Assembly: GCA_045631885.1 (NCBI GenBank)
Contig: JAZQVN010000039.1
Coordinates: 12,608 to 76,607 of the forward strand
From: Bacilli bacterium
GTDB lineage: Bacteria > Bacillota_I > Bacilli_A > RFN20 > CAG-826
DNA: 64,000 nt
Direction: 5' to 3'
Below are positions 7,628 through 45,244 of the stretch, piece after piece (the first letter of the stretch is position 1; each line of letters starts with the position of its first letter). The translations under genes were made by a program, and so were the position numbers. The notes beneath the pieces are model-generated. The model saw only the letters and a list, made by a program, of their open reading frames with translations. It did not search any database and was not told the DNA's origin.

Positions 7628-8717
7628 GAGTTACCCCCTCTGTGACTAGTTCTTTATTTTTCTTTTCCATTTTCGCGTCATAAACGCCAGATAAGATGAT
7701 TGATAATGTAATGATTATGCCTCCAGCAACAACGTTCCAAGAGAATTCTTCCATATGGAAGATGATACTTGTTAATGTTGCAACCACCGCGGACATTGGC
7801 ATTAAGACCGCGCAAGTAACCGCGGAAACGTTTTTAATTGAAATAGTTCTTAATACCCAACACACTGCGGTGCAAGCGACACCTAAGAAGATGAGAATTA
7901 AGATATGTTGCCACTGCCAAGAGAAGTGGAGATTGTGTTCAAATGGAATGGCATAAGCAAAGCTCATAACTGTCAAAACGATTAATTGGATAAAAACATA
8001 AACCCAAGAATCTTTGTTTTTGGCAAATACTTTAGTAAAGGCAATATCAATACCAAAGAATAGACCACCGATACAAGATAAGATATCTCCACTAGTTGGA
8101 GAAGAGAATAACGCGGTGAAATCCCAACCATTTCCACATAAGACGAATGAACCAAATACACACGCGAGTGATGCGATAATTGTCACTAGTGTTGGTTTTT
8201 CTCTCACTAATAAAAACATACAGATTGGAACCGCGATACAAGAGAAACTTTCTAAGAAAGTATTTTTTGCTGGAGTAGTGGAATCTAAACCGATGAATTG
8301 CAATAAGTATGCTGCACCTAAAATAAGACCCGCAAGGATACAAATCCAATAGGATTGTTTAACTTCTTCTTTTGATTTGCCTAAAAGAAGTAAGAATAAA
8401 ACGAGTAATAATAAGGCGGCGATACCTCTGATCATCGTATCTAATCCTGGAACGACTGATAAACTAGCGACAAAAGCTAAACAAGAGATGACGCCGATTG
8501 GAACGCATACCCAATAACTCTTTGATAATTTCTTAAAACCACCTGTCACCAAGATGACGAAAAACATCGCGAAACAAGAAAGTAAACCTCTTATCGCAAC
8601 TAATAGGGCTGGAGAGTATAAGTTGTTGTCAAAAAGATATTTGCTGATAACTGGTGCAATACCCCAGAGAATGACAACTAATATCAACGCTAATAATGAC
8701 AAAATTTTCTTGCTCAT
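7620..8717 (-). CDS. DMT/EamA-like 10-TM transporter, co-oriented with and overlapping arcA.
   Basis: The protein is highly hydrophobic with about 10 TM helices. It has a duplicated 5-TM architecture and an N-terminal segment resembling EamA. It is not a canonical ArcD (APC family). Confidence 0.5.
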   Translation of the reverse strand: MSKKILSLLALILVVILWGIAPVISKYLFDNNLYSPALLVAIRGLLSCFAMFFVILVTGGFKKLSKSYWVCVPIGVISCLAFVASLSVVPGLDTMIRGIAALLLLVLFLLLLGKSKEEVKQSYWICILAGLILGAAYLLQFIGLDSTTPAKNTFLESFSCIAVPICMFLLVREKPTLVTIIASLACVFGSFVLCGNGWDFTALFSSPTSGDILSCIGGLFFGIDIAFTKVFAKNKDSWVYVFIQLIVLTVMSFAYAIPFEHNLHFSWQWQHILILIFLGVACTAVCWVLRTISIKNVSAVTCAVLMPMSAVVATLTSIIFHMEEFSWNVVAGGIIITLSIILSGVYDAKMEKKNKELVTEGVTHE

Positions 8718-8880: not shown

Positions 8881-8909
8881 TTGACATAGTCTTATATATA
8901 TTTAAAATG
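8881..8909 (+). promoter_or_regulatory. Candidate sigma70-type promoter, TTGACA-16-TAAAAT.
   Basis: The -35 element ttgaca is at 8881-8886 and the -10 element taaaat at 8903-8908. Confidence 0.4.
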
Positions 8910-8911
8910 AT

Positions 8912-8935
8912 AACGATTGCAACTAACGATTGCAG
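8912..8935. promoter_or_regulatory. Direct repeat AACGATTGCA x2 (spaced 4 nt) between the promoter and the RBS of HTH-glmM.
   Basis: The sequence aacgattgca-acta-acgattgca is a candidate operator. Each copy contains the palindromic core TTGCAA. Confidence 0.4.
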
Positions 8936-8945
8936 GAGGAAAATT

Positions 8946-10583
8946 ATGACATTAGGTGAAAAGATTGCTCACTTACGAATAGTGAATGGCATGTCACAAG
9001 AAAAACTGGCGGGCTTATTAAATGTCTCTCGTCAATCAATCTCCAAATGGGAAAGCGATGAATCTCAACCACAAATTGAAAACATCTTAGAAATCGCTCA
9101 ATTATTCCAAATTACTACTGATGAATTATTAAACGATCAAATCGTTATTCATAGAGGTAAGAAATTAATCCCGAGTATCGGAGAAGATATTAAAACTAAA
9201 TATTTCGGCACAGATGGCTTTAGAGGCGAAGCCAATGTCGTCTTGACCGCAGATCATGCTTATAAAATCGGTAGATTCTTAGGTTGGTTCTATGGTAACC
9301 CAGAATATAACTGCCAAAAACCAGGTTATAGACCAAAGGTTGTTATTGGTAAAGATACACGTAGATCATCATATATGCTTGAATACGCGGTGGCTGCTGG
9401 TTTAGCGGCTTCTGGCGCGGATGTCTCATTACTTCACGTTACTACAACCCCATCAGTCTCTTATATCGTGAGACAAGATGCTTTCGACTGTGGTGTCATG
9501 ATTACCGCATCTCATAATCCTTTCTATGATAATGGTATTAAAGTTATCAATGGTGAAGGTGAAAAATTAGAAGATAGCGTCGCAGTTCTTATCGAAGCTT
9601 ATCTCGATGGTGAATTAAAGAAATTAGGTATAGAAGGCGATGACTTACCATTCGCCACAAAAGATAGAATTGGTAGTATCACTGATTACTCTTCAGGTAG
9701 AAATAGATACGTTGCTTATTTAATCTCCTTAGCCAAACATTCAATGAAGGGATTAAGAATTGGCTTAGACTCCGCCAATGGTGCATCCTGGATGATTGCG
9801 AAAAATGTCTTTGATGCCTTAGGCGCACAAACATATGTTATCAATAATAATCCAGACGGCTTAAATATCAATGTCAACGCTGGTAGCACACATATTGATA
9901 TCTTATGTAAATATGTTAAAGAAAATAATTTAGACTTCGGCTTTGCCTTCGATGGTGACTCTGATAGATGTATCGCTGTTGATGAAAACGGTAAAGAAGT
10001 CGATGGTGATAAAATCATGTACTTATTAGCCCTCAAGTTAAAATCAGAAGGCGCATTAGAAAAAGATACATTAGTCACCACAATTATGTCTAACTCAGGA
10101 TTATTCAAAGCGTGTAAACAAGTTGGCATTAAAACAGTTCAAACTAAAGTTGGTGATAGATTCGTTTATGAAAGAATGCAAAACGAAGGTTATTCCATCG
10201 GTGGAGAACAATCCGGTCATATTATCATTAAGAAATACGCCACAACAGGTGACGGCATCTTAACCGCGATTATGGTTACAGAAGAAATCTTAGAAAGAAA
10301 AGAAAAATTATCTAAGTTAGTCGCTCCTGTTAAATTATTACCACAAAAGTTAAAGAATGTCAGAGTAACCAATAAAGCCGCGGTTATGGATGATGAAGTG
10401 GTCAAAGCGAAATTCCAAGAAGTCAACGAAGAAATCGGTGACAATGGTCGTGCCTTATTAAGACAATCTGGCACAGAACCAGTTGTGAGAATTATGCTTG
10501 AATGTCCAACCATCAAAGAATGTGATGACTATATTGAAAGAATTTATAACGTCATCAAGAAGAGAGGTTACGTCTGTGAATAA
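8946..10583 (+). CDS. glmM: Phosphoglucosamine mutase with an N-terminal XRE-type HTH domain (fusion).
   Basis: The RBS AGGAGG sits upstream of ATG at 8946. The HTH is LRIVNGMSQEKLAGLLNVSRQSISKWESD. The phosphohexomutase motifs are TASHNP (phosphoserine loop), FDGDSDR (metal-binding) and GGEQSGH (sugar loop, GlmM-type). Confidence 0.8.
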   Translation: MTLGEKIAHLRIVNGMSQEKLAGLLNVSRQSISKWESDESQPQIENILEIAQLFQITTDELLNDQIVIHRGKKLIPSIGEDIKTKYFGTDGFRGEANVVLTADHAYKIGRFLGWFYGNPEYNCQKPGYRPKVVIGKDTRRSSYMLEYAVAAGLAASGADVSLLHVTTTPSVSYIVRQDAFDCGVMITASHNPFYDNGIKVINGEGEKLEDSVAVLIEAYLDGELKKLGIEGDDLPFATKDRIGSITDYSSGRNRYVAYLISLAKHSMKGLRIGLDSANGASWMIAKNVFDALGAQTYVINNNPDGLNINVNAGSTHIDILCKYVKENNLDFGFAFDGDSDRCIAVDENGKEVDGDKIMYLLALKLKSEGALEKDTLVTTIMSNSGLFKACKQVGIKTVQTKVGDRFVYERMQNEGYSIGGEQSGHIIIKKYATTGDGILTAIMVTEEILERKEKLSKLVAPVKLLPQKLKNVRVTNKAAVMDDEVVKAKFQEVNEEIGDNGRALLRQSGTEPVVRIMLECPTIKECDDYIERIYNVIKKRGYVCE

Positions 10584-15459: not shown

Positions 15460-15488
15460 TTGAATATAAAGAAAATACATAATACAAT
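15460..15488 (+). promoter_or_regulatory. Candidate promoter TTGAAT-17-TACAAT for the NRPS operon (near-leaderless).
   Basis: The -35 is at 15460-15465 and the -10 at 15483-15488. The predicted TSS is about 15495, only 3 nt before ATG 15498. There is no SD. Confidence 0.4.
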
Positions 15489-15497
15489 TTTTTTATC

Positions 15498-16103
15498 ATG
15501 GATAAAATAAACCTTTATGTAGTGGACACTAGAAAACATACTTTTAGTGAACTTTTGTCGTACACCAAAATTAGTGACGAAGATTTAAAAACTTTAGACA
15601 AATTTCGCGTTTTAGAAGTGAAAAAAGAGAAGTTAGCATCTCTATATTTTAAACGTAAATATGTCGGAGAGTTTTCAATTAATGAAGACGGTAAACCCGT
15701 CTCTAAAAACTTGTTTTTCAATATCTCTCACTCCAAAGGAGTGGTGGTTATCGCTATCTCCAAGGAACACGAAATAGGTGTAGATATTGAAGTGATTAAA
15801 TCTAAAGACGAAGATTTAGTGAAATATGTCAGTAGTGAAGAAGAATATAAATTCATTAAAACCGAATTTGACTTTCTTTCTATTTGGACTAATAAAGAAT
15901 CTTTAGTCAAATGTTTAGGCACAGGCATTAAAAGCGATATTAAAAGTATTCCCGCTTTACCATTAAATGGTAAAAAGGAATTTAAAGGTGAAACATATTT
16001 TAGCAAGATAACTAAAGTTAATGATTCGATCATATCAATCACTATTAAAGATAAAAATGATTTTGACTTCGATTTAGTAATGGAGGAAGTTCATTATGAT
16101 TAA
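15498..16103 (+). CDS. 4'-phosphopantetheinyl transferase (Sfp-type).
   Basis: The motifs ISHSKG...GVDIE and FSIWTNKESLVKCLGTG (W/FxxKEA/SxxK) are present. It overlaps the NRPS start by 8 nt. Confidence 0.85.
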   Translation: MDKINLYVVDTRKHTFSELLSYTKISDEDLKTLDKFRVLEVKKEKLASLYFKRKYVGEFSINEDGKPVSKNLFFNISHSKGVVVIAISKEHEIGVDIEVIKSKDEDLVKYVSSEEEYKFIKTEFDFLSIWTNKESLVKCLGTGIKSDIKSIPALPLNGKKEFKGETYFSKITKVNDSIISITIKDKNDFDFDLVMEEVHYD

Positions 16104-19100
16104 AAAATCACCATTAAGTAAAAGTGAAGAAGGATTATATGTCTCTTCGTTAAATGGCGGAGATGCGTATAATCTCGCTAACACGATTAATCTTGGGAAA
16201 GACTTTACTGTCGAGCAAGTTCAAGAGGCTTTAAATAAAGTTGCTCTTGCTCATCCTTATTTGTTCACCATCTTAGGAGTGGACGAAGAAGGCAACATCT
16301 ATAAAGAACTAAAAGTCCAAGATATCAAACTCGAAGTTAAAGAAGTCAAAGAGCTTAAAATTGAATCACTTCCATATGAATTAACTAACTCTCCTTTATA
16401 TAGATTTAATCTATATAAACTAGATGGAAACTTGATTTTCTATTTTGATTTCCATCACTTGATTATGGATGGAACATCTTTAAAGATTTTTATTGATGAT
16501 TTCTTCCTCGCTTTAGAAGGTAAAGAGCTAGTTAAAGAAAGTAGTGATGCTTTCGATTTTGCGAATAAAGAAATTGAAATTAGAAATAGCGATGTCTATC
16601 AACAAGACAAAGCTTATTACGATAATCTTCTTTCTGGTGTAGAGACTGACTCCACACTCGTGGAAGATAAAGTTGAAGAAGCGGTTAGCTATGATAACAT
16701 CAGAGTCCCTTTAAAGATTAAAAATGACGAGGTGAAAAAACTCACCTCTAAAGAAGGAGTTAAAACTTCAACATTCTTCCTTGCAGCTTTTTCCTATTTA
16801 TTAACCAAGATAAATATGGAAAATGAAGCATTGTTCCTCACTGTTAATAACGGAAGAAATAAAGATGTCCTTCATTCTTTTGGTAGCTATGTTAAAACAT
16901 ATCCTTTATATATTTCATATCAAGATGATGAATCTGTTAGTGATTTATTAAAGAGAGTTAACGAACAAAACATTAATAATGTTTCCCATAATTCTTATTC
17001 ATTTATGGAATTATCCAAAGATTTAGGAATCGCTCCTAATATCTTATTTGCCTATCAAGGTGATTATTTCTATAAAGGAATGCTTAACGGTAAAGAAGTT
17101 ATTGTTAATCCATTATTAAGAAAAGATGGCAAAGAAAAACTCAGCATCGAATTACATAGATGTAATAATGATTTCATTATTTGGGTTGAATACCGTAGTG
17201 ATTTGTATAACAAAGAAACAATGGAACATCTTATTAAGATGTATGATTTAGCGTTAAAAGAATTACTAACTAAAGAAAAGATTATCGATATCTCCCTAGT
17301 GGATGATGAAGAAGAGAGATTATTAGAATCCTTCAATATAATTGATGCGCCTTATATTGAACCAAATAAGACAATCTTAGATGACTTTAATGAAGCGGTG
17401 AAGGAATTCCCAGATCACACCGCGGTGGTATTTAAAGATCGTCGTTACACATATAAAGAAGTCGATGTTATCACAAATAGAATTGCTAACCAATTAATTA
17501 AAATGGGGGCTCAAAAAGAAAAAGTCGTTTCTATTTTAATCAATAAATCTGAATATATTGTTCTAGCATCTCTTGCAGTTATTAAATCTGGCGCGGCCTA
17601 TCAACCGTTAGATCCATCTTATCCACAAGAAAGATTGAACTTCATGGTCAACGACTCCAAAGCCATCATCTTAATTAGAGATGATAATTTAGAAGGTCTA
17701 ATTACTGAATTTAAAGGACAAGAATTATTAGTCTCATCATTATTATCATTTAAAGATGATAGTGAGATTAAATCTAAACCAGCAAAAGATGATTTATTCA
17801 TCATGCTTTATACTTCTGGTTCTACTGGGATTCCGAAAGGTGTCCAATTAGAACACGGTAACATCTTTGCCTTTGTGAGATATTATCGCCAAGAATTTAA
17901 GATTAATGAGAATAGCAGAATCACCGCTTACGCGTCATATGGTTTTGATGCGGATATGATGGACTTATATCCTACTATTACAAGTGGTGCAACTTTATAT
18001 ATCATCCCTGATGAAATGAGATTAAATCTCGTTGAGTTAGGTGAATACTTTAATGAAAACGGTATCACTCAAGCATTTATTACCACCCAAGTTGGTCGAC
18101 AATTCGCCAGTGAAATCGAAATTAAAACTTTAAAACATTTCCTTGTCGGAGGAGAAAAACTCGTTCCAATGAATCCTCCAAAAGGATATAACTTCTATAA
18201 CGTTTATGGTCCAACCGAAGGTACGGTTTACTGCACCCAACAAATCGTTGATAAGCTCTATAATAGAGTCCCGATTGGTAAATCTTTAAGTGACTATAAA
18301 GTTTATGTTTTAGATAAAAACAAGAAGAGATTACCAGTCTTAGTAAGTGGCGAACTTTATATCTCTGGACCTCAAGTTGCGAGAGGCTATTTAAATAGAG
18401 AAAAAGAGAATACGGAAGCCTTCCTTAAAAACTGGTTCACAGATGAAAAAGACTATCAAAGGCTCTATAAAACTGGCGATATTGTAAGATTTTTACCTGA
18501 TGGCACAATTGACTTTATCGGTAGAAAAGATGGCCAAGTTAAGATTAGAGGATTCCGTGTCGAATTATCCGAAGTCGAAAGAATTATTCGTGAATTTAAA
18601 GATATTAAAGACGCGACAGTCAAAGACTTTACTGACCCAAGCGGAGTCAAATATATATGCGCTTATATCGTGAGTGATAAGAAGATTAATGTCGATGAAT
18701 TAAACGAGTTTATCTTATCCAAAAAACCTCCATATATGGTTCCGGCATACACAATGCAAATCGATAAGATTCCTCTTAACCAAAACCAAAAAGTGAATAA
18801 GAGAGCTTTACCAGAACCAGAACTCAAAGTGGAAGAAAAGATCGCTCCAAGAAATGAAACTGAGCAAGCCATTTTTGATATTGTTAAAGATGTCGTTGGA
18901 CACGATCAATTCGGTGTCACCAATGATTTATTTGAAATTGGTTTAACCTCAGTTTCCTCAATCAGATTAACGATTCTTCTTTCTAAGAAGTTTGATAAAA
19001 CCGTCGAAAACGCGGATTTAAAAGATAACTCCACGGTTGAGGGTTTAGCCAAATTTTTAGTTAATAAAGAAGAAGATAAGACTTATGAAATCTTAAAAGA

Positions 19101-22100
19101 ATACCCAATTAGTAAAACTCAAGAAGGTATCTTCGTTGAATGTGTTTCTAAAGTCGATTCGACAACATATAACATTCCATTCTTATTCAAATTAGATAAG
19201 AACATCGATATCAATAAATTAAAAGAATGCTTATTAAAAGTTATTGATAACCACGAATATATCAAGACCACTTTATTTATGAACGAAGATGGTGATATTA
19301 GAGCGAGAAGAGAAAACGTTCCAAGCGTGGTCACAATTATCGAAGGTGAAATTAATAAAGATAAATTAATTAGACCATTTAAGATTTTAGATAATCCTTT
19401 ATATCGTGTTGAGATTTATAAAGGCAAACAAGATAACTACTTATTCTTAGATTTACATCACATTATTTGTGATGGTACTTCTGAAGCCGTTATCTTATCT
19501 GATTTAAATAAAGCCTATCATAATGAAGAATTAGTGAAAGAAGAATTCACAGGCTTTGAAGTGGCTTTAAAAGAAAAAGAAGACTTAGCTAGTGACAAAT
19601 TAGAAAAAGCGAAATCGTTCTATCAAGGTGTCTTAAAAGATATTGATGGTGAATACGTTTTAAGAAAAGATTTAAAGACCAGCAAAGAAAGTAAACTTAA
19701 ATCAATTGATTATCCATTAGATATTGACATGGGTAAACTTAATGCCTTTATCAAAGATAACAAGTTAACATTTAACGCTTTCTTTAACTTTGCATTTGCT
19801 TTCTCATTATCAAAATTCATTTATCGTAATGATAGCTTATACACAACGATTTATAGTGGAAGAAATTCTTCTAAATTAGCTAATACTGTTTCTATGTTAG
19901 TTAAGACTCTTCCTGTTTATATCAAATATGAAGAAGAAGACAAAGTCTTAAATAAATTAAAAGAAACAAAAGATTTATTAGAGGGATTAGAAGAAAACGA
20001 TTTATATTCATTCGCGGATATCGTTAATGATTATGGCATTAACGCAGATATGATGTTTGCCTATCAAGGTGATGATTTCCATTTCGATTCTATCGGAGGA
20101 TATCCAGTTGAAGCGGTCTTAATGGAAAGCGATGATGCAAAGAGTGATTTCTCGATCGACGTTTTCTTAGAAAACGGCAAATATCGTATCCATTATGAAT
20201 ATGATGAAAGTTTATATAACGAAAACACCATCGCGTCATTTGAACGCTTATATCAATTAGTCCTTAATGAATTACTAATTAAGTCACAAATTAAAGACAT
20301 TAATTTATTAAGTGATGTTGATAGAAAGTTATATGAAGAATTTAATGATACTGAAGAAGATATTCCAAATATTACCTTCAATAAACACATTGAAAGACAA
20401 GCAAGAGAAAACCCAGATAAAGTCGCGGTTATTGCGAAAAATGGTAGATACACTTATAGAGACTTTAACGCTGCGGCGAATAAAGTCGCTCATAGTTTAG
20501 TTGATAAAGGTGTCAAATTAGCAGACCCAATCGTTATGCTAATGCCTCGTATTGCGGAAGCTTATGTTGTTAGACAAGGTATCATCAAGAGTGGTGGCGC
20601 ATTTGTTCCAGTTGATCCTAAATATCCAGATGATCGTGTTGAATATATCATCACTGACTCTGGTTCAAAGATTTTAATTTCTACGAAAGAAGTTATTGAA
20701 TCTAAGAAAGAATTAATTAAAAAGACTGGTATCATCGCTTTAGATGTCTTTGATTTACTTAAGAGTGACAAAGTCGATAATTTAGATTTAGATATTCCTC
20801 AATCCTCCATGTGCTATGTCATTTACACATCGGGTAGTACAGGAAAACCAAAAGGCGTGATGATTTCTCATCGTAACTTAGTTAACTATGTGACTGATGG
20901 TAAGAATTACGCGACAGAAGAATATCGCATGATTAAAGGTGGCGCGGTCGGCTGTTCCTTTGCCTCATTATCATTTGATGCTTCTTTACAAGAAGAATGT
21001 ATCGTTTTATCACATGGCTTCACCGCGGTTATCGCTAGTGAAGAAGAGATTGAAAACCCATTATTATTAGCCAAAACATTAAAAGAAAATAAAGTAAACA
21101 TTATGTTTATGACTCCATCATTTGTCTCTAACTTATTAGACATTGATGAATTTGTGGATGCATTAAAGAACTTCCAAGTTCTTGATATGGGCGCGGAAGT
21201 TGTCCCGATTGAATTATGTAATCGCTTAAGAGAATTAGGCGTCACCGCGGTTATTAATAATGGTTATGGTCCAACAGAAACCACGATCACTGCGACATAT
21301 TCCACAGTGAAAGATGAATATATGACAATCGGTAAACCAATTGCAAATATCAAAGCTTACCTATTAGATAAGGCGGGTCATATCTTACCAATTAATGCGA
21401 TTGGTGATTTAACTCTCGCAGGCGAGGCCACGGGTATTGGTTATTTAGGTATGCCAGAAAAGACAAAGCAAAGCTTTATTGAACTAAACGGCATGCGTGC
21501 ATATCGTTCAGGTGACTTAGCGAGATATAACTCCGAAGGCAATATTGAATTCTTCGGTAGATTAGATAATCAAGTTAAGTTAAGAGGATTACGTGTTGAA
21601 CTAGATGAAATTGAAAAAGTTCTTAACTCTTATCCAAGTGTGAAGAGAAGTATCATCTTAGTGAAAACTAATCCAGTTGATGGAGATTATCTCGCTGCGT
21701 ATTTTGTGGCCTCGACGATGATTGATAAAGATGATTTAACCGCGCATATGGCGAAATCATTAACTCCTTATATGATTCCAAAGGTGATGATGCAATTAGA
21801 TAAATTCCCATTAACACCAAACGGAAAGATTGATAAGAAAGCCCTTCCAGAAATTGAAGTGAAAGCTTCTAATAAAGTTAGAAAAGAAGCGACTAATGAA
21901 TTAGAAAAACAATTAGTGAAATTATTCTCTAAAGCATTAGGTCAAGAAAATATTGGTATTGATGAAGACTTCTTTGAATTAGGCGGGACCTCATTAAGTG
22001 CCTCTAAGATTGCGATGCTTGCATTAAATGCAAACTTACCAATTTCTTATGGCGATGTCTTTGAATATCCAAGCGTTTTAGAAATGGAAGCCCATATTAA

Positions 22101-23325
22101 ATCATTAAATAACGAAGTGGTTGAAGAAGTTACTGAAGAAGTTAATCTCGATAATAGTGGACTTGCATCCCTTAAAGAAAATGTTGTCGCGAACGTCAAT
22201 GAAGTATGTATTGAAAAAGACTTCGATAACGTCTTATTAACAGGTTCCACTGGCTTCTTAGGAATCCATATCTTAAAAGAATTAATTAATCAAAAGAAAC
22301 ATGTTATCGCTTTAATTAGAGGCGGTAAACTCAATCCGCTTGATCGTTTACAAGGTTTACTCGCGTATTATTTTGATTCTCCATTAGATGAAGAAGTGAA
22401 AGAATATGTGACAGTTGTAGACGGTGATGTCACTGATGAAACATTATATGATAAACTCAAAGAGTTTAAGTTTGATTTAATCATTAACTCCGCAGCGATT
22501 GTTAAACACTTCTCTAATGATGACATTATTGAAAGAGTTAATGTCGGTGGTGTGAAAAACTTAATTGAAATTGCCAAGAAGAAAAATGTCAGATTGGTGC
22601 AAATCTCCACATTATCTGTCGCTGGTGAAAATATCGATGATAAGTTCGATGCGACATTTAGAATGAAAGAGAATATGTTAGACTTTGGTCAAGATGTCTC
22701 AAATAAATATGTCCATTCTAAATTCAATGCAGAAAAAGCGATATTAGAGGCGTGCCTTGATGGATTAGACGGCAAAGTCATCCGTGTTGGTAACTTAATG
22801 AGTAGAAATAGCGATGGTGAATTCCAAGCTAACTCTATTACTAACGGTTTCATGAGAGATTTAAAAGGATATGTTGCTTTACATAAATTCCCAGTTAACT
22901 CCATGGATGTTGAAATCGACTTCTCCCCAATTGATGAAGTCGCAAAAACCATTATCTTATTATCCAAAACTGATAAGAAATTTACTGTCTTCCATTCAGC
23001 GAACTCACACATGGTTCAAATGGGTGACATCATTTATGTCTTAAATGAATTAGGATTCGAAATTGAAGTAGTCAGTGATGATGACTTCTTGAAGTCAATG
23101 AAAGAAATGATGATGGATGAAAGTAAGAGTATGTTAGTCTCATCATTAATCTCATATTCATCAAGTGATATGCATACGCATTCATTCATCCTTTCTGATA
23201 ATGAATTCACTAATAAAGCTTTATATCATTTGAGTTATAAATGGCCAATTACCGATTATCAATATTTAAGAAAGGCGATTGAATCACTTGATACATTAGG
23301 ATTCTTTGATAGGACGGACTTATGA
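16096..23325 (+). CDS. Two-module nonribosomal peptide synthetase, C-A-T-C-A-T-R, with a terminal thioester reductase.
   Basis: Module 1 has a C domain (HHLIMDGTS), an A domain (LYTSGSTGIPKGV, YGPTEGT, YKTGDIVRF) and a T domain. Module 2 has a C domain (HHIICDGTS), an A domain (YTSGSTGKPKGV, YGPTETT) and a T domain (FFELGGTSLSA). The R domain is an NAD(P)-binding Rossmann fold (LLTGSTGFLGIHIL). The stop is TGA. Confidence 0.9.
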   Translation: MIKKSPLSKSEEGLYVSSLNGGDAYNLANTINLGKDFTVEQVQEALNKVALAHPYLFTILGVDEEGNIYKELKVQDIKLEVKEVKELKIESLPYELTNSPLYRFNLYKLDGNLIFYFDFHHLIMDGTSLKIFIDDFFLALEGKELVKESSDAFDFANKEIEIRNSDVYQQDKAYYDNLLSGVETDSTLVEDKVEEAVSYDNIRVPLKIKNDEVKKLTSKEGVKTSTFFLAAFSYLLTKINMENEALFLTVNNGRNKDVLHSFGSYVKTYPLYISYQDDESVSDLLKRVNEQNINNVSHNSYSFMELSKDLGIAPNILFAYQGDYFYKGMLNGKEVIVNPLLRKDGKEKLSIELHRCNNDFIIWVEYRSDLYNKETMEHLIKMYDLALKELLTKEKIIDISLVDDEEERLLESFNIIDAPYIEPNKTILDDFNEAVKEFPDHTAVVFKDRRYTYKEVDVITNRIANQLIKMGAQKEKVVSILINKSEYIVLASLAVIKSGAAYQPLDPSYPQERLNFMVNDSKAIILIRDDNLEGLITEFKGQELLVSSLLSFKDDSEIKSKPAKDDLFIMLYTSGSTGIPKGVQLEHGNIFAFVRYYRQEFKINENSRITAYASYGFDADMMDLYPTITSGATLYIIPDEMRLNLVELGEYFNENGITQAFITTQVGRQFASEIEIKTLKHFLVGGEKLVPMNPPKGYNFYNVYGPTEGTVYCTQQIVDKLYNRVPIGKSLSDYKVYVLDKNKKRLPVLVSGELYISGPQVARGYLNREKENTEAFLKNWFTDEKDYQRLYKTGDIVRFLPDGTIDFIGRKDGQVKIRGFRVELSEVERIIREFKDIKDATVKDFTDPSGVKYICAYIVSDKKINVDELNEFILSKKPPYMVPAYTMQIDKIPLNQNQKVNKRALPEPELKVEEKIAPRNETEQAIFDIVKDVVGHDQFGVTNDLFEIGLTSVSSIRLTILLSKKFDKTVENADLKDNSTVEGLAKFLVNKEEDKTYEILKEYPISKTQEGIFVECVSKVDSTTYNIPFLFKLDKNIDINKLKECLLKVIDNHEYIKTTLFMNEDGDIRARRENVPSVVTIIEGEINKDKLIRPFKILDNPLYRVEIYKGKQDNYLFLDLHHIICDGTSEAVILSDLNKAYHNEELVKEEFTGFEVALKEKEDLASDKLEKAKSFYQGVLKDIDGEYVLRKDLKTSKESKLKSIDYPLDIDMGKLNAFIKDNKLTFNAFFNFAFAFSLSKFIYRNDSLYTTIYSGRNSSKLANTVSMLVKTLPVYIKYEEEDKVLNKLKETKDLLEGLEENDLYSFADIVNDYGINADMMFAYQGDDFHFDSIGGYPVEAVLMESDDAKSDFSIDVFLENGKYRIHYEYDESLYNENTIASFERLYQLVLNELLIKSQIKDINLLSDVDRKLYEEFNDTEEDIPNITFNKHIERQARENPDKVAVIAKNGRYTYRDFNAAANKVAHSLVDKGVKLADPIVMLMPRIAEAYVVRQGIIKSGGAFVPVDPKYPDDRVEYIITDSGSKILISTKEVIESKKELIKKTGIIALDVFDLLKSDKVDNLDLDIPQSSMCYVIYTSGSTGKPKGVMISHRNLVNYVTDGKNYATEEYRMIKGGAVGCSFASLSFDASLQEECIVLSHGFTAVIASEEEIENPLLLAKTLKENKVNIMFMTPSFVSNLLDIDEFVDALKNFQVLDMGAEVVPIELCNRLRELGVTAVINNGYGPTETTITATYSTVKDEYMTIGKPIANIKAYLLDKAGHILPINAIGDLTLAGEATGIGYLGMPEKTKQSFIELNGMRAYRSGDLARYNSEGNIEFFGRLDNQVKLRGLRVELDEIEKVLNSYPSVKRSIILVKTNPVDGDYLAAYFVASTMIDKDDLTAHMAKSLTPYMIPKVMMQLDKFPLTPNGKIDKKALPEIEVKASNKVRKEATNELEKQLVKLFSKALGQENIGIDEDFFELGGTSLSASKIAMLALNANLPISYGDVFEYPSVLEMEAHIKSLNNEVVEEVTEEVNLDNSGLASLKENVVANVNEVCIEKDFDNVLLTGSTGFLGIHILKELINQKKHVIALIRGGKLNPLDRLQGLLAYYFDSPLDEEVKEYVTVVDGDVTDETLYDKLKEFKFDLIINSAAIVKHFSNDDIIERVNVGGVKNLIEIAKKKNVRLVQISTLSVAGENIDDKFDATFRMKENMLDFGQDVSNKYVHSKFNAEKAILEACLDGLDGKVIRVGNLMSRNSDGEFQANSITNGFMRDLKGYVALHKFPVNSMDVEIDFSPIDEVAKTIILLSKTDKKFTVFHSANSHMVQMGDIIYVLNELGFEIEVVSDDDFLKSMKEMMMDESKSMLVSSLISYSSSDMHTHSFILSDNEFTNKALYHLSYKWPITDYQYLRKAIESLDTLGFFDRTDL

Positions 23326-25103
23326 GTTTAAAAAGAAATTCCAAATTAATTGATCGTAAATTCATCCAATATTTGATTCCTTCAATATTGATGATTTTTG
23401 CGATGCAGTTTGGCTCATTAGTCGATGGCATTTTTGTTGGTAACTTTATCGGTAGTGATGCCTTAAGTGCGACAGCCTTAGTTATACCAATTTTATATAT
23501 TATCCAAATCCCTGGATTCGCTCTCGGAGTGGGTGGATCAATTGTCGTCGCTAATTTGTTAGGAAAAAGAGATGTCGATAAATCGAAAAAAGTATTTACG
23601 ATGTGCTTTATCCTCGGCATGGGTTTATCAAGTATATTCGCAATTCTCTCGTTCTTTGTTTCTGAACCTTTGGCAAGATTGTTTGGAGATACATTGCTCG
23701 GGTATTGTACAGATTATGTCTTTATCTACTTATTAACTGACCCAATTATCGCTGCAGCGTTATTAATTGGTTCATTTATGGCGGTTGATAATAATCCAAA
23801 ACTATCTTCTATCTTCTTTATCGTCGCTAATGTCGCAAAAGTCGGTTTAGAAATCTTATTCATCCATCAAGATTTATTAAATTGGGGGATGAAAGGAGCG
23901 GCTTTCTCTACCGCGGCAGGTTATCTCGTAGGCATGATTACCGTGATATTCTATATCTTTAGCAAAGAGAGACACCTCGGATTCACATTTAAACTACGTG
24001 AAAATGGCTTCAAAGAAACATTTAAAGCGAGTAGCACATCCGCGCTTAATCTTTTATTAACAGCGATCCAGATGTTAATCGTCAATATTGTCATTGGTCA
24101 AGTCATCACATCGATGAGAGATTTAAATGCTTATGGATTAGTGGCTAATATGGTCTTTGTTTTTGACTTATTATGTGGTGGTGTGCAAAACGTAATTCCA
24201 AATATTTGTGGGATTTTTTACGGGGAAAAAGATTACTATTCACTTAAAAGCGTTACGAGAAAAATATATTTAATCAACATAATTTTGACAGCGTTTATTA
24301 CCGCGGCAATTGCGATATTCCCGAACATTTACGCGGTGGCGTTTGGCTATAATGACTTCACCGATTTTAACCAAGTTGCTTTATTTATAAGAATCTATTT
24401 AATCTCATTTATCCCATATGAAATTAATAAGTTCTCGATGAATTATTACCCCACAGTGGATAAGAACGTGCCATCTCTTGTTACTGTTTTACTAAGAGAG
24501 GCAATCATCGTTTTACCTGTTACATTAGTCTTATTAAACGTTTATGGATTAATGGGTTATTGCGCAGCTTGTGCGATTACAGAAGCATCCACAGTCATCA
24601 TCACTTATATTTTTATTTACATTTATCAAAAGGTGAAAAAGAAAGGCACACGTGGCATCTTCATGATGGAAGATTTATCATTTGAATCATTTGATGTTTC
24701 TTTAACTAATGAAATGGAAAACGCCTCAGTGATTTCTGAAGACTTAACTGATTTTGCTTTATCAAAGAATGTTCCTAATAGAGAAAGTCAATTAATTGGT
24801 TTAGCTAGTGAAGAGATGGTGGCTAACATTGTCACATTTGGTTATAAACGCAAAAAGAGAAACTATATTGACGTTAGTTTAAAGGTCAACGAAGACACAT
24901 TAATCTTAAGAATTAGAGATGATGGAGTGCCTTTTGATCCGACTAAATATGAATTCGATAATACCGAGGATTATTCCACAAGTGGAATCGAATTAATGAA
25001 AAACATTACTGATAAAATGACGTATATGCGTATACTTAATTTAAACAACACGATTTTTGAAATCAAATATAAGGGAGGTTTGGAAAATGGAAATCCTAAT
25101 TAA
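23322..25103 (+). CDS. MATE-family efflux transporter fused to a C-terminal GHKL (RsbW/SpoIIAB-like) anti-sigma-kinase domain.
   Basis: The MATE N-terminus (LIDRKFIQYLIPSIL...) has about 12 TM helices. The C-terminal ~140 aa have an N-box-like EEMVANIVTFGY and a G1-box-like LRIRDDGVPFD. The ATGA overlap with the NRPS stop implies coupling. Confidence 0.7.
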   Translation: MSLKRNSKLIDRKFIQYLIPSILMIFAMQFGSLVDGIFVGNFIGSDALSATALVIPILYIIQIPGFALGVGGSIVVANLLGKRDVDKSKKVFTMCFILGMGLSSIFAILSFFVSEPLARLFGDTLLGYCTDYVFIYLLTDPIIAAALLIGSFMAVDNNPKLSSIFFIVANVAKVGLEILFIHQDLLNWGMKGAAFSTAAGYLVGMITVIFYIFSKERHLGFTFKLRENGFKETFKASSTSALNLLLTAIQMLIVNIVIGQVITSMRDLNAYGLVANMVFVFDLLCGGVQNVIPNICGIFYGEKDYYSLKSVTRKIYLINIILTAFITAAIAIFPNIYAVAFGYNDFTDFNQVALFIRIYLISFIPYEINKFSMNYYPTVDKNVPSLVTVLLREAIIVLPVTLVLLNVYGLMGYCAACAITEASTVIITYIFIYIYQKVKKKGTRGIFMMEDLSFESFDVSLTNEMENASVISEDLTDFALSKNVPNRESQLIGLASEEMVANIVTFGYKRKKRNYIDVSLKVNEDTLILRIRDDGVPFDPTKYEFDNTEDYSTSGIELMKNITDKMTYMRILNLNNTIFEIKYKGGLENGNPN

Positions 25104-25383
25104 ACACGAAGATGCGATGATCATCTCCTTAAAAGGTAGATTAGATACAGTCACATCAGTCGAATTTCAAAAAGCAGTCGCTGAAGAAGAAATCAAAGAA
25201 TCTTTAGTCATCGTTGACGCGAAAGAATTAGAGTATATTTCTTCTGCCGGCTTACGCGCTTTATTATCACTTAAAAAACAATTAGTCCCAGAGGGCAAAG
25301 GTTTAGAAATCCATAATCTTAACCCTGTTTGCCAAGAAGTGTTCAAAGTCACAGGCTTTAACAATATTTTAACCGTTAAATAA
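25087..25383 (+). CDS. STAS-domain protein (anti-sigma-factor antagonist, SpoIIAA/RsbV-like).
   Basis: A GGAGG RBS precedes the start. The conserved phosphorylatable region is YISSAGLRALLSL. It is about 100 aa long. Confidence 0.75.
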   Translation: MEILIKHEDAMIISLKGRLDTVTSVEFQKAVAEEEIKESLVIVDAKELEYISSAGLRALLSLKKQLVPEGKGLEIHNLNPVCQEVFKVTGFNNILTVK

Positions 25384-25385
25384 TT

Positions 25386-27506
25386 ATGAAAGTTTCTATC
25401 AGGGTCAAAATAGTTGCTCTAGGTGCGATTATTTCCGCTTTAACAATGGCGGTTTCTTTGTTCGTGAGTGATTATCTCTTCCGCATGAATAGTCAAAATG
25501 AACTTTTAGATAATGTTTATTTATGGCTTGATAGTTTAGAAGATGATTATCTTAATCATGAATATAGCGAAACTTATCGCGCGAGAGTGGAAGATACTTA
25601 TAACTATGTTAATGATATTTATAAAACTGGCGTTGAAGACCCTGAAGAATTTGAAAGCTTTGACGCGAAAAAACAATATTTTAAAAATAGATACAAATGG
25701 GTGTACACAATCGATGGCATAGGTATGTATTGGCAAAGTGAAGAAGAAAGAACATTTAGAGCTAATTATGACGATTTGTCAGAAACATTAAGAAACGCCG
25801 CGGTCGGCAAAAATGCTGCCAGTGTCTACTTAGTTTATTTCGATGATACGAATAATCAGATGATCTTCCTCGCGGATGATTCATCCTATATCGCAAATTA
25901 TAAATTTGAATATCATTTACCTGGTTCTCATGTCACAGTCACAAATAGACCACAAAAAGAAGAAAAGCATTATTCGTTTAACTATAACGGTCTCATGACA
26001 AAATGTATCCCAATTGGAACCCCGGCAAATAGCGACGACACAATCGCTTATATCATGATAGAGTACAATTTTGATGCGATTGATGCTGAAGCAAGAACAA
26101 TATTCTTACTTGAGTTATTGACCCTATCATTAACATATATTGTTTTATTAGTAATGTTCTTTATTTTATCTCATTTCATGGTGACAAGAAACGTCATCAA
26201 ATTATCCAAATCATCCCAAAAATTTACTGATAGTTTAAAGAGCAAAAAAGAACTAGTCGTGGAAGATCCACATATTAAATCGAGAGACGAAATTAGAGAC
26301 TTGTCTAACTCTTTCGTTGCGTTAGAAAATGAAATTATCAACTATGTTGATATCATTACTAAAGAAGCGCAAGAAAAAGAAAAATTCAACGCTGAACTTT
26401 CTATCGCTAGCAAGATTCAACTAGACTCATTACCAAATTCTAATTACGCAGATAAGAACCTTAACTTAAAAGCGTTTATTAAGACCGCGAAAGAAGTCGG
26501 TGGTGATTTCTATGATTATTTCTATTTGAACGATAATCAATTGCTCATCACAATATGTGACGTCTCTGGTAAAGGCGTCCCAGCGGCCTTATTTATGATG
26601 AAAGGTAAGGAATTAATTAAATCATTTATTAAAACTGATTCATCATTGCCGGATGCGATTTATAAAGCAAATAACGAATTAGTAAAGAATAATTATGAAA
26701 ACTTATTCATCACTGCGTTTGTCGCGATTATTGATTTTGCTAAACACGAAATTAAATACGTTAACGCGGGTCATGAAAAACCATATTTGTTAACTAATGG
26801 TGAAGTTGAGAAGTTAGATGGCATTTCTAACTTTGTTCTAGGTGGAGAAAGTGGCTTCCCATATGTTGAAGAAAAACATTCATTTAACCCAGGAGATAGA
26901 ATCTTCTTATTTACTGATGGATTAAATGAAGCGATTAACTCTAAAGAAGAAGAATTCTCTTATTCCAGAATAGAAGAAGTCTTAAAAGATAATATCAACT
27001 CATCCATTAATGAAATCATTGAAAATATGAACATCGCGCATAACAAGTTCGTCGCTGGAGAAGATGTCTTTGATGATGTTACGATGTTATTAATTGAAGC
27101 CAGTAAAAACGAACTGCACCTTTCTTATCAAAATGAAGATGTGACAATCATCGAACAAATCGTTGACCAATTCGAGAAAACATTCGCTGGTTTATCCGCG
27201 AAAGTTAAATCAGAAGTTGGCATCATTATTGATGAGATTGTGAATAACATTATCTCTTATTCCGAAGTGGAGAATCTCGAGTTAGATATTGATTTCAAAC
27301 TTGAAAAAAATGAATTAGTCATTATCTTTAAAGATAATGGTAAGAAATTTGATCCATTACAAAAAGAAGATAAATATTTAGAAGAATATAGCGATGATAT
27401 TGAAACCGGTGGCTTTGGCATTGGCTTAGTTAAAACATTATCTACTTCACAAAAATACGAATATAAAAATAAACGCAACATCTTAATGATTAGAAAAGAT
27501 ATCTAA
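25386..27506 (+). CDS. PP2C-type (SpoIIE/RsbU-like) phosphatase with an N-terminal membrane/sensor region and a C-terminal GHKL kinase-like domain.
   Basis: There is an N-terminal TM helix and a central TM helix. The PP2C core is GGDFYDYFYL...ICDVSGKGVPAALFM...FTDGLNEA. The C-terminal DEIVNNIISYS...IIFKDNGKKFDP resembles an RsbW-like ATPase. Confidence 0.7.
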   Translation: MKVSIRVKIVALGAIISALTMAVSLFVSDYLFRMNSQNELLDNVYLWLDSLEDDYLNHEYSETYRARVEDTYNYVNDIYKTGVEDPEEFESFDAKKQYFKNRYKWVYTIDGIGMYWQSEEERTFRANYDDLSETLRNAAVGKNAASVYLVYFDDTNNQMIFLADDSSYIANYKFEYHLPGSHVTVTNRPQKEEKHYSFNYNGLMTKCIPIGTPANSDDTIAYIMIEYNFDAIDAEARTIFLLELLTLSLTYIVLLVMFFILSHFMVTRNVIKLSKSSQKFTDSLKSKKELVVEDPHIKSRDEIRDLSNSFVALENEIINYVDIITKEAQEKEKFNAELSIASKIQLDSLPNSNYADKNLNLKAFIKTAKEVGGDFYDYFYLNDNQLLITICDVSGKGVPAALFMMKGKELIKSFIKTDSSLPDAIYKANNELVKNNYENLFITAFVAIIDFAKHEIKYVNAGHEKPYLLTNGEVEKLDGISNFVLGGESGFPYVEEKHSFNPGDRIFLFTDGLNEAINSKEEEFSYSRIEEVLKDNINSSINEIIENMNIAHNKFVAGEDVFDDVTMLLIEASKNELHLSYQNEDVTIIEQIVDQFEKTFAGLSAKVKSEVGIIIDEIVNNIISYSEVENLELDIDFKLEKNELVIIFKDNGKKFDPLQKEDKYLEEYSDDIETGGFGIGLVKTLSTSQKYEYKNKRNILMIRKDI

Positions 27507-30299: not shown

Positions 30300-31562
30300 A
30301 TGAGTATAAATGTTATATTCAATATTACTGTGTGTCTTGTTGGCATCATCTTTTTGACTATCCATGCAGTTGATACAGGACTTAAAAAGAATAAAAGAAA
30401 AGATGAAATTAATTTATTAATCTTCATCATTTTTACAATTGTCCACTTCGCTACATATTTAACATTTACTGTTATCAAAATGTATTACACCAGTGATCCA
30501 TTTATCATTGGCTTCTATACAACGTTCTATATCATGAATAATGTTGAGCTCATTTTGCTCTTCATATATACGATTTCATATGTCTCGATTAGTAAGAAAG
30601 TCAAAACAATCACATCAATAATCAATTTCAGCATATTTGGTATTTATGTACTTTTAGACATTATCAACATTTTTACCCATATGTTCTTCTCCGCGGAAAA
30701 TGGTGTATATGTGAGAAGCCCAGGTATGCTTTTCTCCCAAACTTATCAATTCATTGCTTTCATCATCGTTTTCATATTGACAGTGTTTAATAAGAAACTT
30801 AATAAAACCGAGAAAATTGCTTACTCATTATATTGTGTGTTGCCATTTATCGCGATTATCATCCAAAACTTATTACCAGGATACGCGATTGCTTATTTCT
30901 CAGTTATCATTTCAATCGAAATCTTGTTCTTGTTTGTTAACGTGAAGAAAAACCTCGAGTTAGTTAATGAAGAAAAGAAGAGCAGAGAAACGGAAATTAA
31001 ACTCATGATGTCACAGATTCAACCGCACTTCATTTATAACACACTTTCGTCAATTTCTACGCTTATTGAAATCAATCCAAAAAAAGCTCAAGAAGCCCTT
31101 GATACATTTACTGAGTATTTAAGAGCAAATCTTTCATCTTTATCAAAAACAGGACTCATTAATTTTGAAGATGAATTAAGACATATTGTGACTTATATCT
31201 CTTTAGAAAAAATTAGATTTGAGGAGAGATTGAATGTAGTTTTTGATGTAAAAGTCACAGATTTTCTTGTTCCTCCTCTTAGCATTCAACCGATCGTTGA
31301 GAACTCTGTTAAACATGGTATTTTACAGAAAATTGAAGGTGGAACAATTTCGATTAAAACATATGAAACTAACGACGCATACTTCGTTGAAATTGCGGAT
31401 GATGGAGTGGGTTTTGATATTGATAAAATTAACCTCACTTCTGGTGACCATATCGGTATCAATAATGTCCGTTATCGCTTGTCTACAATGTGCAATGGTG
31501 AGATGCATATCGATAGTGAAATTGATAAAGGCACTAAGATAGTAGTAAAATTATATAAGTAG
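30300..31562 (+). CDS. Sensor histidine kinase, LytS/YehU-like (His_kinase plus HATPase_c), with a polytopic N-terminus.
   Basis: There are about 6 TM helices. The phosphoacceptor region is QIQPHFIYNTLSSIST. The ATPase G-boxes are IADDGVGFD and GIGINNV. Confidence 0.8.
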   Translation: MSINVIFNITVCLVGIIFLTIHAVDTGLKKNKRKDEINLLIFIIFTIVHFATYLTFTVIKMYYTSDPFIIGFYTTFYIMNNVELILLFIYTISYVSISKKVKTITSIINFSIFGIYVLLDIINIFTHMFFSAENGVYVRSPGMLFSQTYQFIAFIIVFILTVFNKKLNKTEKIAYSLYCVLPFIAIIIQNLLPGYAIAYFSVIISIEILFLFVNVKKNLELVNEEKKSRETEIKLMMSQIQPHFIYNTLSSISTLIEINPKKAQEALDTFTEYLRANLSSLSKTGLINFEDELRHIVTYISLEKIRFEERLNVVFDVKVTDFLVPPLSIQPIVENSVKHGILQKIEGGTISIKTYETNDAYFVEIADDGVGFDIDKINLTSGDHIGINNVRYRLSTMCNGEMHIDSEIDKGTKIVVKLYK

Positions 31563-31563
31563 T

Positions 31564-32331
31564 ATGAAAGTATTATTAGTTGATGATGAAAAGCTCCAAT
31601 TAACAAGACTAGAATCCTCTGTTAAGAAGGTTTTAACTGATGCAGAGCTATTTTGTTATACCAATCCTATCGCAGCGATAGAAGAAAATAAGAATAATAA
31701 GTTCGACATCGCCTTTTTAGATATCGAAATGCCAAAACTAAATGGTGTTACCTTAGCGAAAATGCTCAAAGGTACTAATCCTTTAATAAATATTATCTTT
31801 GTTACCGCTTATGATAAGTTCGCTTTAGAAGCAATGCGTATACGCGCGAGTGGATTTGTCACAAAACCAGTCAACGAAGATAAAGTTCGCGAAGAAATCG
31901 AAGCGTTACGTTATCCAATTGGTATGAAACAAGAGAAAAAGATCCAAATTAAGTGCTTTGGTAACTTTGAAGTGTTCCATAATGGCGAACCAGTTCAATT
32001 CTTATATCGTAAATCAAAAGAATTATTCGCTTATCTAGTCGATAGAGAAGGTTCAGCGGTCAACATCAACGAACTGAACGCTGTTCTTTGGGAAGAAGAT
32101 CACAAATCATACCTCAGGAATCTCATCAGTGATATCCAAAAGACACTCAAGAGTCTCGACGCTAGTGAAGTATTCATCAAGAAGCACAATGAATGCTACA
32201 TTGACGTCAACACAATCGATTGCGACGCCTATGAATACAAGAGAAATAACCCTGAAGCGGTAAGGATGTACCGTGGAGAGTATATGGAACAGTATTCTTG
32301 GCCAATGTTTAATGCTGACGACGAGTATTAG
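31564..32331 (+). CDS. Response regulator: receiver domain plus a C-terminal winged-helix (OmpR/SARP-like) DNA-binding domain.
   Basis: The receiver features are LLVDDE, DIAFLDIEMP and FVTAYD. The C-terminus is FGNFEVFHNGEPVQF...ELFAYL...LW. Confidence 0.7.
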   Translation: MKVLLVDDEKLQLTRLESSVKKVLTDAELFCYTNPIAAIEENKNNKFDIAFLDIEMPKLNGVTLAKMLKGTNPLINIIFVTAYDKFALEAMRIRASGFVTKPVNEDKVREEIEALRYPIGMKQEKKIQIKCFGNFEVFHNGEPVQFLYRKSKELFAYLVDREGSAVNINELNAVLWEEDHKSYLRNLISDIQKTLKSLDASEVFIKKHNECYIDVNTIDCDAYEYKRNNPEAVRMYRGEYMEQYSWPMFNADDEY

Positions 32332-32363: not shown

Positions 32364-32385
32364 GGACTTTTAAAGTCCTTTTTTT
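32364..32385 (+). terminator. Rho-independent terminator after the response regulator.
   Basis: A ggacttt/aaagtcc hairpin is followed by TTTTTTT. Confidence 0.65.
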
Positions 32386-34318: not shown

Positions 34319-34331
34319 GGGGGCGAAGACA

Positions 34332-36698: not shown

Positions 36699-36700
36699 AT

Positions 36701-44173: not shown

Positions 44174-44214
44174 TCATCAATCGTAAAAGACAAGTAGTAA
44201 AAGGAGGCAAGATT

Positions 44215-44523
44215 ATGCAAAACATTATCTTAGCAATGTCTGAAAAGGATCTTAACGATATCGTTAAACCTCTTCTTGAAGTATTGAAGGTTTTAGTTCC
44301 AGTACTTCTCACACTCGTCGGAGCTTTAGGCGCCGTATGGGTTATTTTCCTTGGCATTAAATACGCCAAAGCGGAAGAACCACAAGAACACGAAAAGGCA
44401 AGAAACGCTTTAAAGAATGCGATTATTGGCTTCGTCCTTATCTTCGTTCTTTTAGTCGCTTTACAAGCCGGTGTTACCATCTTCTCAAGCTGGTATAAGA
44501 ACTACGATTTCCCAGTGGCATAG
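44215..44523 (+). CDS. Small two-TM membrane protein (pilin/VirB2/TrbC-like candidate).
   Basis: It has an AGGAGG RBS and is 102 aa long. It has two hydrophobic helices separated by a charged loop, a size and topology typical of T4SS pilin-like subunits. Confidence 0.45.
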   Translation: MQNIILAMSEKDLNDIVKPLLEVLKVLVPVLLTLVGALGAVWVIFLGIKYAKAEEPQEHEKARNALKNAIIGFVLIFVLLVALQAGVTIFSSWYKNYDFPVA

Positions 44524-44542
44524 TTTTTGATTCAGTAATTTT

Positions 44543-45232: not shown

Positions 45233-45244
45233 AAAGGAGATTAT

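Follow-up and report, generated by a model that had tools for sequence, protein, structure and literature searches.

The 64-kb window analysed here (64,000 nucleotides of contig JAZQVN010000039.1, from a Bacilli bacterium of the CAG-826 group of RFN20; all positions are those of this whole stretch) encodes an intact two-module nonribosomal peptide synthetase (NRPS) together with its own activating enzyme, an Sfp-type 4'-phosphopantetheinyl transferase (PPTase). An earlier note, made from the sequence alone, had assigned positions 15498-23325 to these two genes and predicted a dipeptide aldehyde as the product. We took the coordinates of the open reading frames (ORFs) from a mechanical ORF list of the window and identified domains with Pfam and NCBIfam, for which the large protein was divided into seven pieces. 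The two genes and the condensation (C), adenylation (A), carrier (T) and reductase (R) domains of the synthetase are arranged as follows (aa, amino acids; 113 is the number of proteins in the family alignment introduced below):

15498..16103, + strand: Sfp-type 4'-phosphopantetheinyl transferase, 201 aa (Pfam ACPS, NCBIfam, motifs)
16096..23325, + strand: dimodular NRPS, 2409 aa, C-A-T-C-A-T-R (Pfam, NCBIfam, motifs)
16096..17355, + strand: C1, N-terminal condensation domain, aa 1-420 (HHLIMDG; best PDB matches LgrA/TycC elongation C domains)
17383..18810, + strand: A1, adenylation domain, aa 430-905, code DAMFLGVVYK (TIGR01733, 5e-109)
18853..19065, + strand: T1, carrier domain, aa 920-990, Ser952 (Pfam PP-binding; Ser in 113/113)
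19093..20325, + strand: C2, condensation domain, aa 1000-1410, HHIICDG at aa 1121 (Pfam Condensation 1001-1410; motif in 113/113)
20392..21828, + strand: A2, adenylation domain, aa 1433-1911, code DAQFDGGITK (TIGR01733, 4e-105)
21883..22095, + strand: T2, carrier domain, aa 1930-2000, Ser1966 in GGTS (Pfam, motif, alignment)
22231..23325, + strand: terminal thioester reductase, aa 2046-2409 (TIGR01746, 1.5e-42; PDB 6VTJ, 4F6C, MxaA)

The synthetase gene is a single uninterrupted ORF of 7.2 kb, its coordinates agree exactly with those given in the earlier note, and a protein identical to its product is present in NCBI (P0001). Pfam detected two AMP-binding domains (1e-146) with AMP-binding_C, two Condensation domains (1.5e-91), two PP-binding domains (9e-19) and NAD_binding_4/Epimerase (NAD_binding_4, 1.8e-32), with E-values spanning 1e-14 to 1e-146. 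The piecewise NCBIfam scan returned the collinear order C-A-T-C-A-T-R in one polypeptide, with both A pieces above the TIGR01733 cut-off and the last piece recognised as a TIGR01746 thioester reductase. In the translation, motifs A3, A5, A7, A8 and A10 are legible in both A domains, with A3, TSGSTG(I/K)PKG, at aa 573 and 1578, A5, YGPTE, at aa 704 and 1724, and the A10 lysine at aa 899 and 1911. HHLIMDG lies at aa 120 of C1, the serine of T1 sits in the motif GLTS, and the reductase carries TGSTGFLG at aa 2049, Thr2172 and YVHSK at aa 2205, which provides Tyr2205 and Lys2209 in the Tyr-x3-Lys spacing. The reductase triad and the A-domain core motifs, whose loss the earlier note had named as grounds for rejecting its reading, are complete.

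The PPTase matches Pfam ACPS (4e-10) and the Sfp-group NCBIfam families AusB (1e-18), AcpT and HetI, each under its equivalog cut-off. Its motifs IGVDIE and WTNKESLVK conform to GxD(I/V)E and W(S/T)xKE(S/A)xxK of the Sfp type, a two-lobed enzyme of ~200-230 aa. Its stop codon overlaps the start of the synthetase gene by 8 nt (ATGATTAA), with GGAGGA 8 nt upstream as ribosome-binding site, and the PPTase gene lies directly 5' of the synthetase gene in 27 of the 34 close-clade loci for which upstream sequence was available. The stop codon TGA of the synthetase in turn overlaps the ATG of the next gene (ATGA). The domain order, the Sfp-type assignment, the translational coupling and the AT-rich composition (GC content of the region 0.32-0.35) that had been read from the letters are thereby all confirmed.

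A protein search returned over 110 relatives of full length (2400-2420 aa) with 54-88% identity to the synthetase, and 113 of these were aligned. Invariant in all 113 proteins are the second His and the Asp of the C1 active site, the whole HHxxxDG motif of C2, both carrier serines, both A10 lysines, and the glycine motif and Thr/Tyr/Lys triad of the reductase. C1 is the most divergent domain, with a mean pairwise identity of 0.51 as compared to 0.63-0.73 for the others. Between close pairs, dN/dS (Nei-Gojobori) lay at 0.01-0.2 in every domain, with 0.05-0.2 in C1 and 0.01-0.1 in most of the others. A pseudogene or an assembly artefact, which we also considered, was rejected in view of the invariant catalytic residues and this purifying selection.

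Scanning one genome per species of the Genome Taxonomy Database (GTDB) yielded 64 NRPS loci. Those with at least 60% identity (38 loci) belong to metagenome-assembled genomes (MAGs) from the gut of cattle, sheep, goat, deer and buffalo; they are labelled mostly as Erysipelotrichaceae, Bacilli, Bacillales or Acholeplasmatales, four carry Clostridia-type labels, and the best species-level locus is that of RUG14596 (82% identity). Loci at 35-50% identity come from Lachnospiraceae, Ruminococcus, Eubacterium and other Clostridia MAGs; among them are loci of the same architecture that include the transporter fusion described below, and others are three- or four-module forms (L022, L024, L035, L043-L051, L056 and L058). 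With 38 species-level genomes and more than 110 protein clusters, the NRPS is common in this lineage and not, as had been suggested, an oddity for its host. NRPS clusters are the largest class of biosynthetic gene clusters in rumen genomes (PMC8241843), so that its presence is no surprise. Our search of the literature on rumen NRPSs in RFN20 or Erysipelotrichaceae found nothing specific to this cluster.

The earlier note had ended the cluster with the synthetase at 23325. We compared the proteins encoded by neighbouring genes of the window with all NRPS loci by tblastn, and three further genes downstream proved to be conserved with the synthetase, tightly packed and in the same order, and belong to the cluster. 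These genes, and two further features at the edges, are:

15460..15488, + strand: promoter-like site TTGAAT-17-TACAAT, 10 nt before the PPTase start (consensus scan; match only)
23322..25103, + strand: MATE efflux transporter (~11 predicted transmembrane segments) with a C-terminal RsbW-like HATPase_c_2 kinase, 593 aa (MatE 4e-25, HATPase_c_2 1.4e-11; NCBIfam MATE and RsbW/SpoIIAB)
25087..25383, + strand: STAS anti-sigma-factor antagonist, 98 aa (Pfam STAS 3.6e-14; phospho-serine motif ISSAGL)
25386..27506, + strand: membrane PP2C-kinase sensor (Pfam SpoIIE 1e-39, HATPase_c_2 2e-13; conserved downstream)
30300..32331, + strand: LytS-type histidine kinase and LytR/BtsR-like response regulator (Pfam His_kinase/HATPase_c and Response_reg; BtsR/LytR matches)

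The fusion of MATE transporter and kinase is full-length in 29 of the 30 close-clade loci with downstream sequence and also occurs in the Clostridia relatives. The STAS gene, which is conserved downstream in about 24 of these 30 loci, starts at the ATG at 25087 with the ribosome-binding site GGGAGG (the mechanical ORF begins at TTG 25057), and its product scores 57.6 bits against TIGR00377, above the cut-off of 53.45. In the predicted topology of the third protein, a transmembrane segment (aa 1-20), an outside loop of ~215 aa and a second membrane region (aa 236-272) precede the PP2C domain (aa 383-571) and the HATPase_c_2 kinase domain (aa 584-704). The order PPTase, NRPS, MATE::kinase, STAS, PP2C::kinase is collinear in more than 20 loci; the Clostridia relatives hold the same accessory genes in shuffled order. 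One locus at 71% identity (L002, RUG11814) has no MATE, STAS or PP2C gene within 10 kb downstream, so that the accessory set is not obligatory. The same locus has no PPTase gene within 750 nt upstream. As for the promoter-like site, consensus matches of this kind in the AT-rich region are no commoner than in shuffled sequences.

The histidine kinase and response regulator occur together near the NRPS in six relatives, on either side, and the response regulator without the kinase in two more; they are possibly accessory regulators and not part of the core. A terminator-like site lies 3' of the pair (32364-32378). Flanking genes beyond the cluster are not syntenic between relatives. An upstream HAD-like gene, a flavin reductase gene, a deacetylase gene and a downstream GH3 gene were considered as cluster members and rejected, as they are not conserved beside the NRPS.

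The accessory genes resemble partner switches of the RsbU/RsbV/RsbW type (and kinase-phosphatase pairs like SypE/SypA) in that a STAS protein with a phospho-serine motif, a PP2C phosphatase and HATPase_c_2 kinases are present. They differ from Rsb modules in lacking a sigma factor, and in carrying one kinase on the MATE transporter and the other on the phosphatase.

To place the synthetase among known systems, we compared it with curated families and solved structures. AusA, the aureusimine synthetase of Staphylococcus aureus, is the best curated NCBIfam family for every piece of the NRPS, as AusB is for the PPTase. The scores stay far under the equivalog cut-offs, with 48-350 bits for the individual pieces (349 and 335 for the A pieces) against 2500 bits for AusA (NF047350) and 67 bits against 225 bits for AusB (NF047349). 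The NRPS is therefore a homologue of aureusimine synthetase and not an orthologue. The R domain matches PDB entry 6VTJ, the carrier-reductase didomain (PCP-R) of Mru_0351, with 1e-66 and 229 bits, the aldehyde-forming AusA-R (4F6C) with 1e-37 and 133 bits, and the alcohol-forming MxaA with 6e-17 and 65 bits. Both its TGxxGxxG site for NAD(P)H and its Thr/Tyr/Lys triad can be aligned with the structures of AusA-R and Mru_0351. The product that AusA releases is a dipeptide aldehyde (PMC8210680), and the homology to synthetases with reductive release that the earlier note had recognised is borne out by these matches.

The AusA/AusB system (PznA) and the locus described here are alike in their full-length collinearity, terminal thioester reductase and adjacent Sfp-type PPTase. 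The present locus differs in its specificity codes, in a well-conserved C1 with intact active site, in its rumen anaerobe host and in the additional MATE-kinase, STAS and PP2C genes. The nearest solved relative of its R domain, the PCP-R of Mru_0351, comes from the rumen methanogen Methanobrevibacter ruminantium and thus from the same habitat as the relatives found here, which are ruminant-gut MAGs; mru0351 itself has four modules. A second synthetase gene of this archaeon, mru0068, consists of two C-A-T modules with a thioester reductase and is flanked by two serine phosphatases, an anti-sigma antagonist and a MatE pump (Leahy et al. 2010, PMC2812497). By this description, its accessory set and its rumen habitat are like those of the present cluster, whereas its host is an archaeon.

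A human-gut family of dipeptide aldehyde NRPSs with 47 clusters was reportedly described by Guo et al. in 2017, and RupA of Ruminococcus bromii, the ruminopeptin synthetase, reportedly by Schneider and Balskus in 2018. Secondary descriptions present gut clusters of related kind as releasing dipeptide aldehydes that inhibit proteases, some with a stabilising N-acyl tail, and ruminopeptin as an N-acylated Leu-Glu aldehyde (PMC8210680, PMC12327764, PMC8518294). As far as these descriptions allow a comparison, the present system shares with them the dimodular NRPS, the reductive release, which in the described systems sometimes gives N-acylated products, and the gut anaerobe host. It differs from the human-gut family in that its clade consists of Bacilli-labelled MAGs from the ruminant gut, and in its last-module code, DAQFDGGITK, which is not that of the Clostridia relatives.

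Stachelhaus specificity codes, a check that the earlier note had recommended, were read from an alignment to GrsA-PheA, the numbering of which was verified by the reference itself (DAWTIAAICK at the canonical positions). The A1 code of the present enzyme, DAMFLGVVYK, is one of 38 variants across the family, all of which are hydrophobic (DAMFxGxxxK). It is identical at 8 of 10 positions to the isoleucine code DGFFLGVVYK, so that a branched-chain or hydrophobic amino acid is the likely substrate of A1. The A2 code, DAQFDGGITK, is fixed in 110 of the 113 family proteins and in all close-clade loci. Gln239, Asp299, Gly301, Gly322 and Thr331 suggest a deep polar or acidic pocket, into which a basic side chain or an amide would fit. 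Comparison of A2 with the PDB gave generic A-domain matches of about equal score and nothing informative on the substrate. The last-module codes of the Clostridia relatives are different (DMKNLGTVSK in a Ruminococcus MAG, DVQFYGGVFK, DVIKIGSVSK), and the Lys in the first of these would fit an acidic residue.

We propose, with moderate confidence, that the PPTase, the NRPS, the MATE-kinase fusion, the STAS protein and the membrane PP2C-kinase are encoded by one operon, expressed in this order, that makes, exports and regulates an N-acyl dipeptide aldehyde. The PPTase would convert both carrier domains to their holo form, A1 would load a branched or hydrophobic residue that differs between species, and A2 would load one fixed residue that is probably polar or charged. 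C1 would most likely acylate the first residue with an acyl group from primary metabolism, C2 would form the peptide bond, and the NAD(P)H-dependent reductase would release the thioester-bound chain, most probably in the form of an N-acyl dipeptide aldehyde. Export of the product would then fall to the fused MATE pump, and the STAS, PP2C and RsbW-like kinase set may make production or export responsive to an external signal that the membrane phosphatase perceives. By analogy with the gut compounds, the product is likely to act as a reversible covalent protease inhibitor within the rumen community.

The role of C1 is where this proposal meets its strongest competitor, in which C1 is not used for acylation and a dipeptide aldehyde with a free amine closes spontaneously into a dihydropyrazinone or pyrazinone ring, as with AusA. 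The starter C domain claimed in the earlier note stands in part. C1 is N-terminal, ahead of the first A domain, and has an intact HHxxxDG active site, and it is constrained and not vestigial, given its dN/dS and the catalytic His and Asp retained throughout the alignment; position, active site and purifying selection together favour N-acylation. Counting against our proposal, C1 is no nearer to known starter C domains than to those of the elongation type. The best PDB matches of C1 are the elongation C domains of LgrA and TycC (1e-18 to 1e-16), as opposed to 4e-9 for 8F7F (stand-alone 461-aa surfactin synthetase chains), which are presumably the starter C domain. A search of C1 against a library of 1.84 billion proteins did not separate starter from elongation domains, its ranking being dominated by multi-module proteins, nor were the two types told apart by BLAST of C1 against C domains located behind the acyl-loading modules of three-module relatives. 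The AusA model, the best curated one for every domain, spans a weakly similar N-terminal C-like region (47.6 bits), and the aureusimines that AusA produces are non-acylated pyrazinones (PMC8210680, PMC12153313). Also in line with a free amine are the low conservation of C1 relative to the other domains and the comparison of neighbouring genes across loci, in which no acyl-activating enzyme or acyl carrier protein (ACP) was conserved beside the cluster. The missing donor genes say little, however, since starter C domains normally take acyl-CoA or acyl-ACP from primary metabolism, and the constraint on C1 is not expected of a vestigial domain. Additionally, many Clostridia relatives begin with a further A-T module, the A domain of which has no Asp235 (its codes being, for instance, IASFSGTFLK or VAVYLAMGIK). 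Because Asp235 of an A domain binds the alpha-amino group, its loss marks a loader of a non-amino-acid starter and suggests a dedicated acyl or keto-acid loader in these relatives, which makes N-capping a trait of the wider family. We therefore favour acylation, which we consider probable, over the free-amine route, which seems rather unlikely to us. If acylation occurs, it bars the cyclisation to pyrazinones. The pyrazinone read-out suggested in the earlier note thus contradicts the acylation predicted alongside it, and linear N-acyl aldehydes are the fitting read-out.

Further points weigh against the N-acyl aldehyde at later steps. Terminal R domains of the same fold form alcohols in other pathways, as exemplified by the match to MxaA, and sequence and structure do not yet reveal whether the reduction involves two or four electrons (PMC8024701). 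The product of a four-electron reduction would be an (N-acyl) dipeptide alcohol and would lack a reactive warhead against proteases. We regard such a reduction as improbable, given that the match of the R domain to the aldehyde-forming AusA-R has twice the score of that to MxaA and that aldehydes are what the characterised gut relatives release (PMC12327764, PMC8210680). Neither the Methanobrevibacter enzymes (PMC8024701) nor any member of the present clade has a known product, the specificity-code strings, that of A2 included, had no match in the searchable literature, and protease inhibition is proposed by analogy only. With regard to regulation, family scans detected no sigma-factor domain in any ORF from 12 to 34 kb of the window. 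A non-productive relic, in decay or recently acquired by transfer, would agree with the non-syntenic flanking genes and with the conjugation-like region 9 kb downstream. It is effectively excluded by the uninterrupted 7.2-kb ORF with all catalytic residues intact, by the strong purifying selection across dozens of species and by a GC content equal to that of the surroundings.

Building on the N-acyl dipeptide aldehyde, we entertain a more far-reaching scenario as speculation that is doubtful as a whole. The MATE::RsbW-like kinase, the STAS protein and the membrane PP2C::kinase could form a partner switch that is independent of a sigma factor and acts post-translationally on the exporter or the synthetase of a reactive aldehyde, and this module may have travelled with the NRPS family among Bacilli, Clostridia and Methanobrevibacter. 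A2 would fix a basic or amide residue at P1, so that probably peptidoglycan-deficient rumen bacteria would make a leupeptin-like N-acyl-X-argininal or -glutaminal.

Gut-microbe clusters for reactive peptide aldehydes are known already, and the present one is a fairly ordinary further member, from a large, unstudied and uncultured rumen group. Few natural products of the microbiome have a defined activity that matters to the host; gut dipeptide aldehydes, as protease inhibitors, are among them, and with about 38 species-level genomes found here, their chemistry is probably widespread in this uncultured rumen lineage. Points of modest interest are the P1 position fixed throughout the clade, the link to the methanogen NRPSs and the partner-switch genes fused to a transporter. 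With one residue position fixed clade-wide and the other variable, the family presents a clear target for synthesis-first or heterologous discovery. As the cluster has its nearest solved relative and its accessory genes in common with the uncharacterised NRPSs of M. ruminantium, identifying the product of either would shed light on that of the other, a point of interest to research on rumen ecology and methane.

The remainder of the window offers some indications on the host. TGA serves as stop codon in 3 of the 40 ORFs of the window, the NRPS included, which ends at the same C-terminus as its homologues; the organism therefore uses the standard bacterial code and not code 4. Large surface proteins (2833-5349, 36701-44173, 60373-61794 and 61816-63399) end in a hydrophobic helix and a basic tail without LPxTG, and an amylase and several other exported proteins have lipoprotein-type N-termini. 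No mur or penicillin-binding protein (PBP) genes for peptidoglycan were found within the 64-kb window. Sortase loss has been reported for the order RFN20, and peptidoglycan deficiency predicted for the families CAG-826 and CAG-288 (PMC10868615). The envelope pattern of the window fits a sortase-free, possibly peptidoglycan-deficient cell of the RFN20 type. A wall-less host is plausible and unproven, since the lack of a whole pathway cannot be read from 64 kb. The window contains no tRNA gene and no match to an Rfam family at gathering threshold.

The region downstream of the cluster (32726-50871) resembles a block for conjugation or type IV secretion and may be an integrative element. It comprises a VirD4/TraG coupling protein (34293-36698), the surface protein at 36701-44173 (2490 aa), a TraG/VirB4-like P-loop ATPase (46660-49323), a lipoprotein with MBG domain and several ORFs without family match. 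Two unusual domain combinations were observed elsewhere. One ORF (8907-10583) fuses an N-terminal HTH_3 domain to a complete four-domain PGM_PMM enzyme of the phosphoglucomutase/phosphomannomutase family and is followed 3' by a hexapeptide transferase gene and a NagB-like gene. On the minus strand (56817-58703), a second LytS-type histidine kinase is accompanied by a response regulator with HTH_3 N-terminal to the receiver, an uncommon domain order. The arginine deiminase pathway, an energy route typical of Mollicutes-like and other fermenters, is represented by arcA and arcB together with an EamA-family transporter (5413-8717, minus strand), and the only named close relatives of the arginine deiminase are MAGs labelled 'Bacilli bacterium'.

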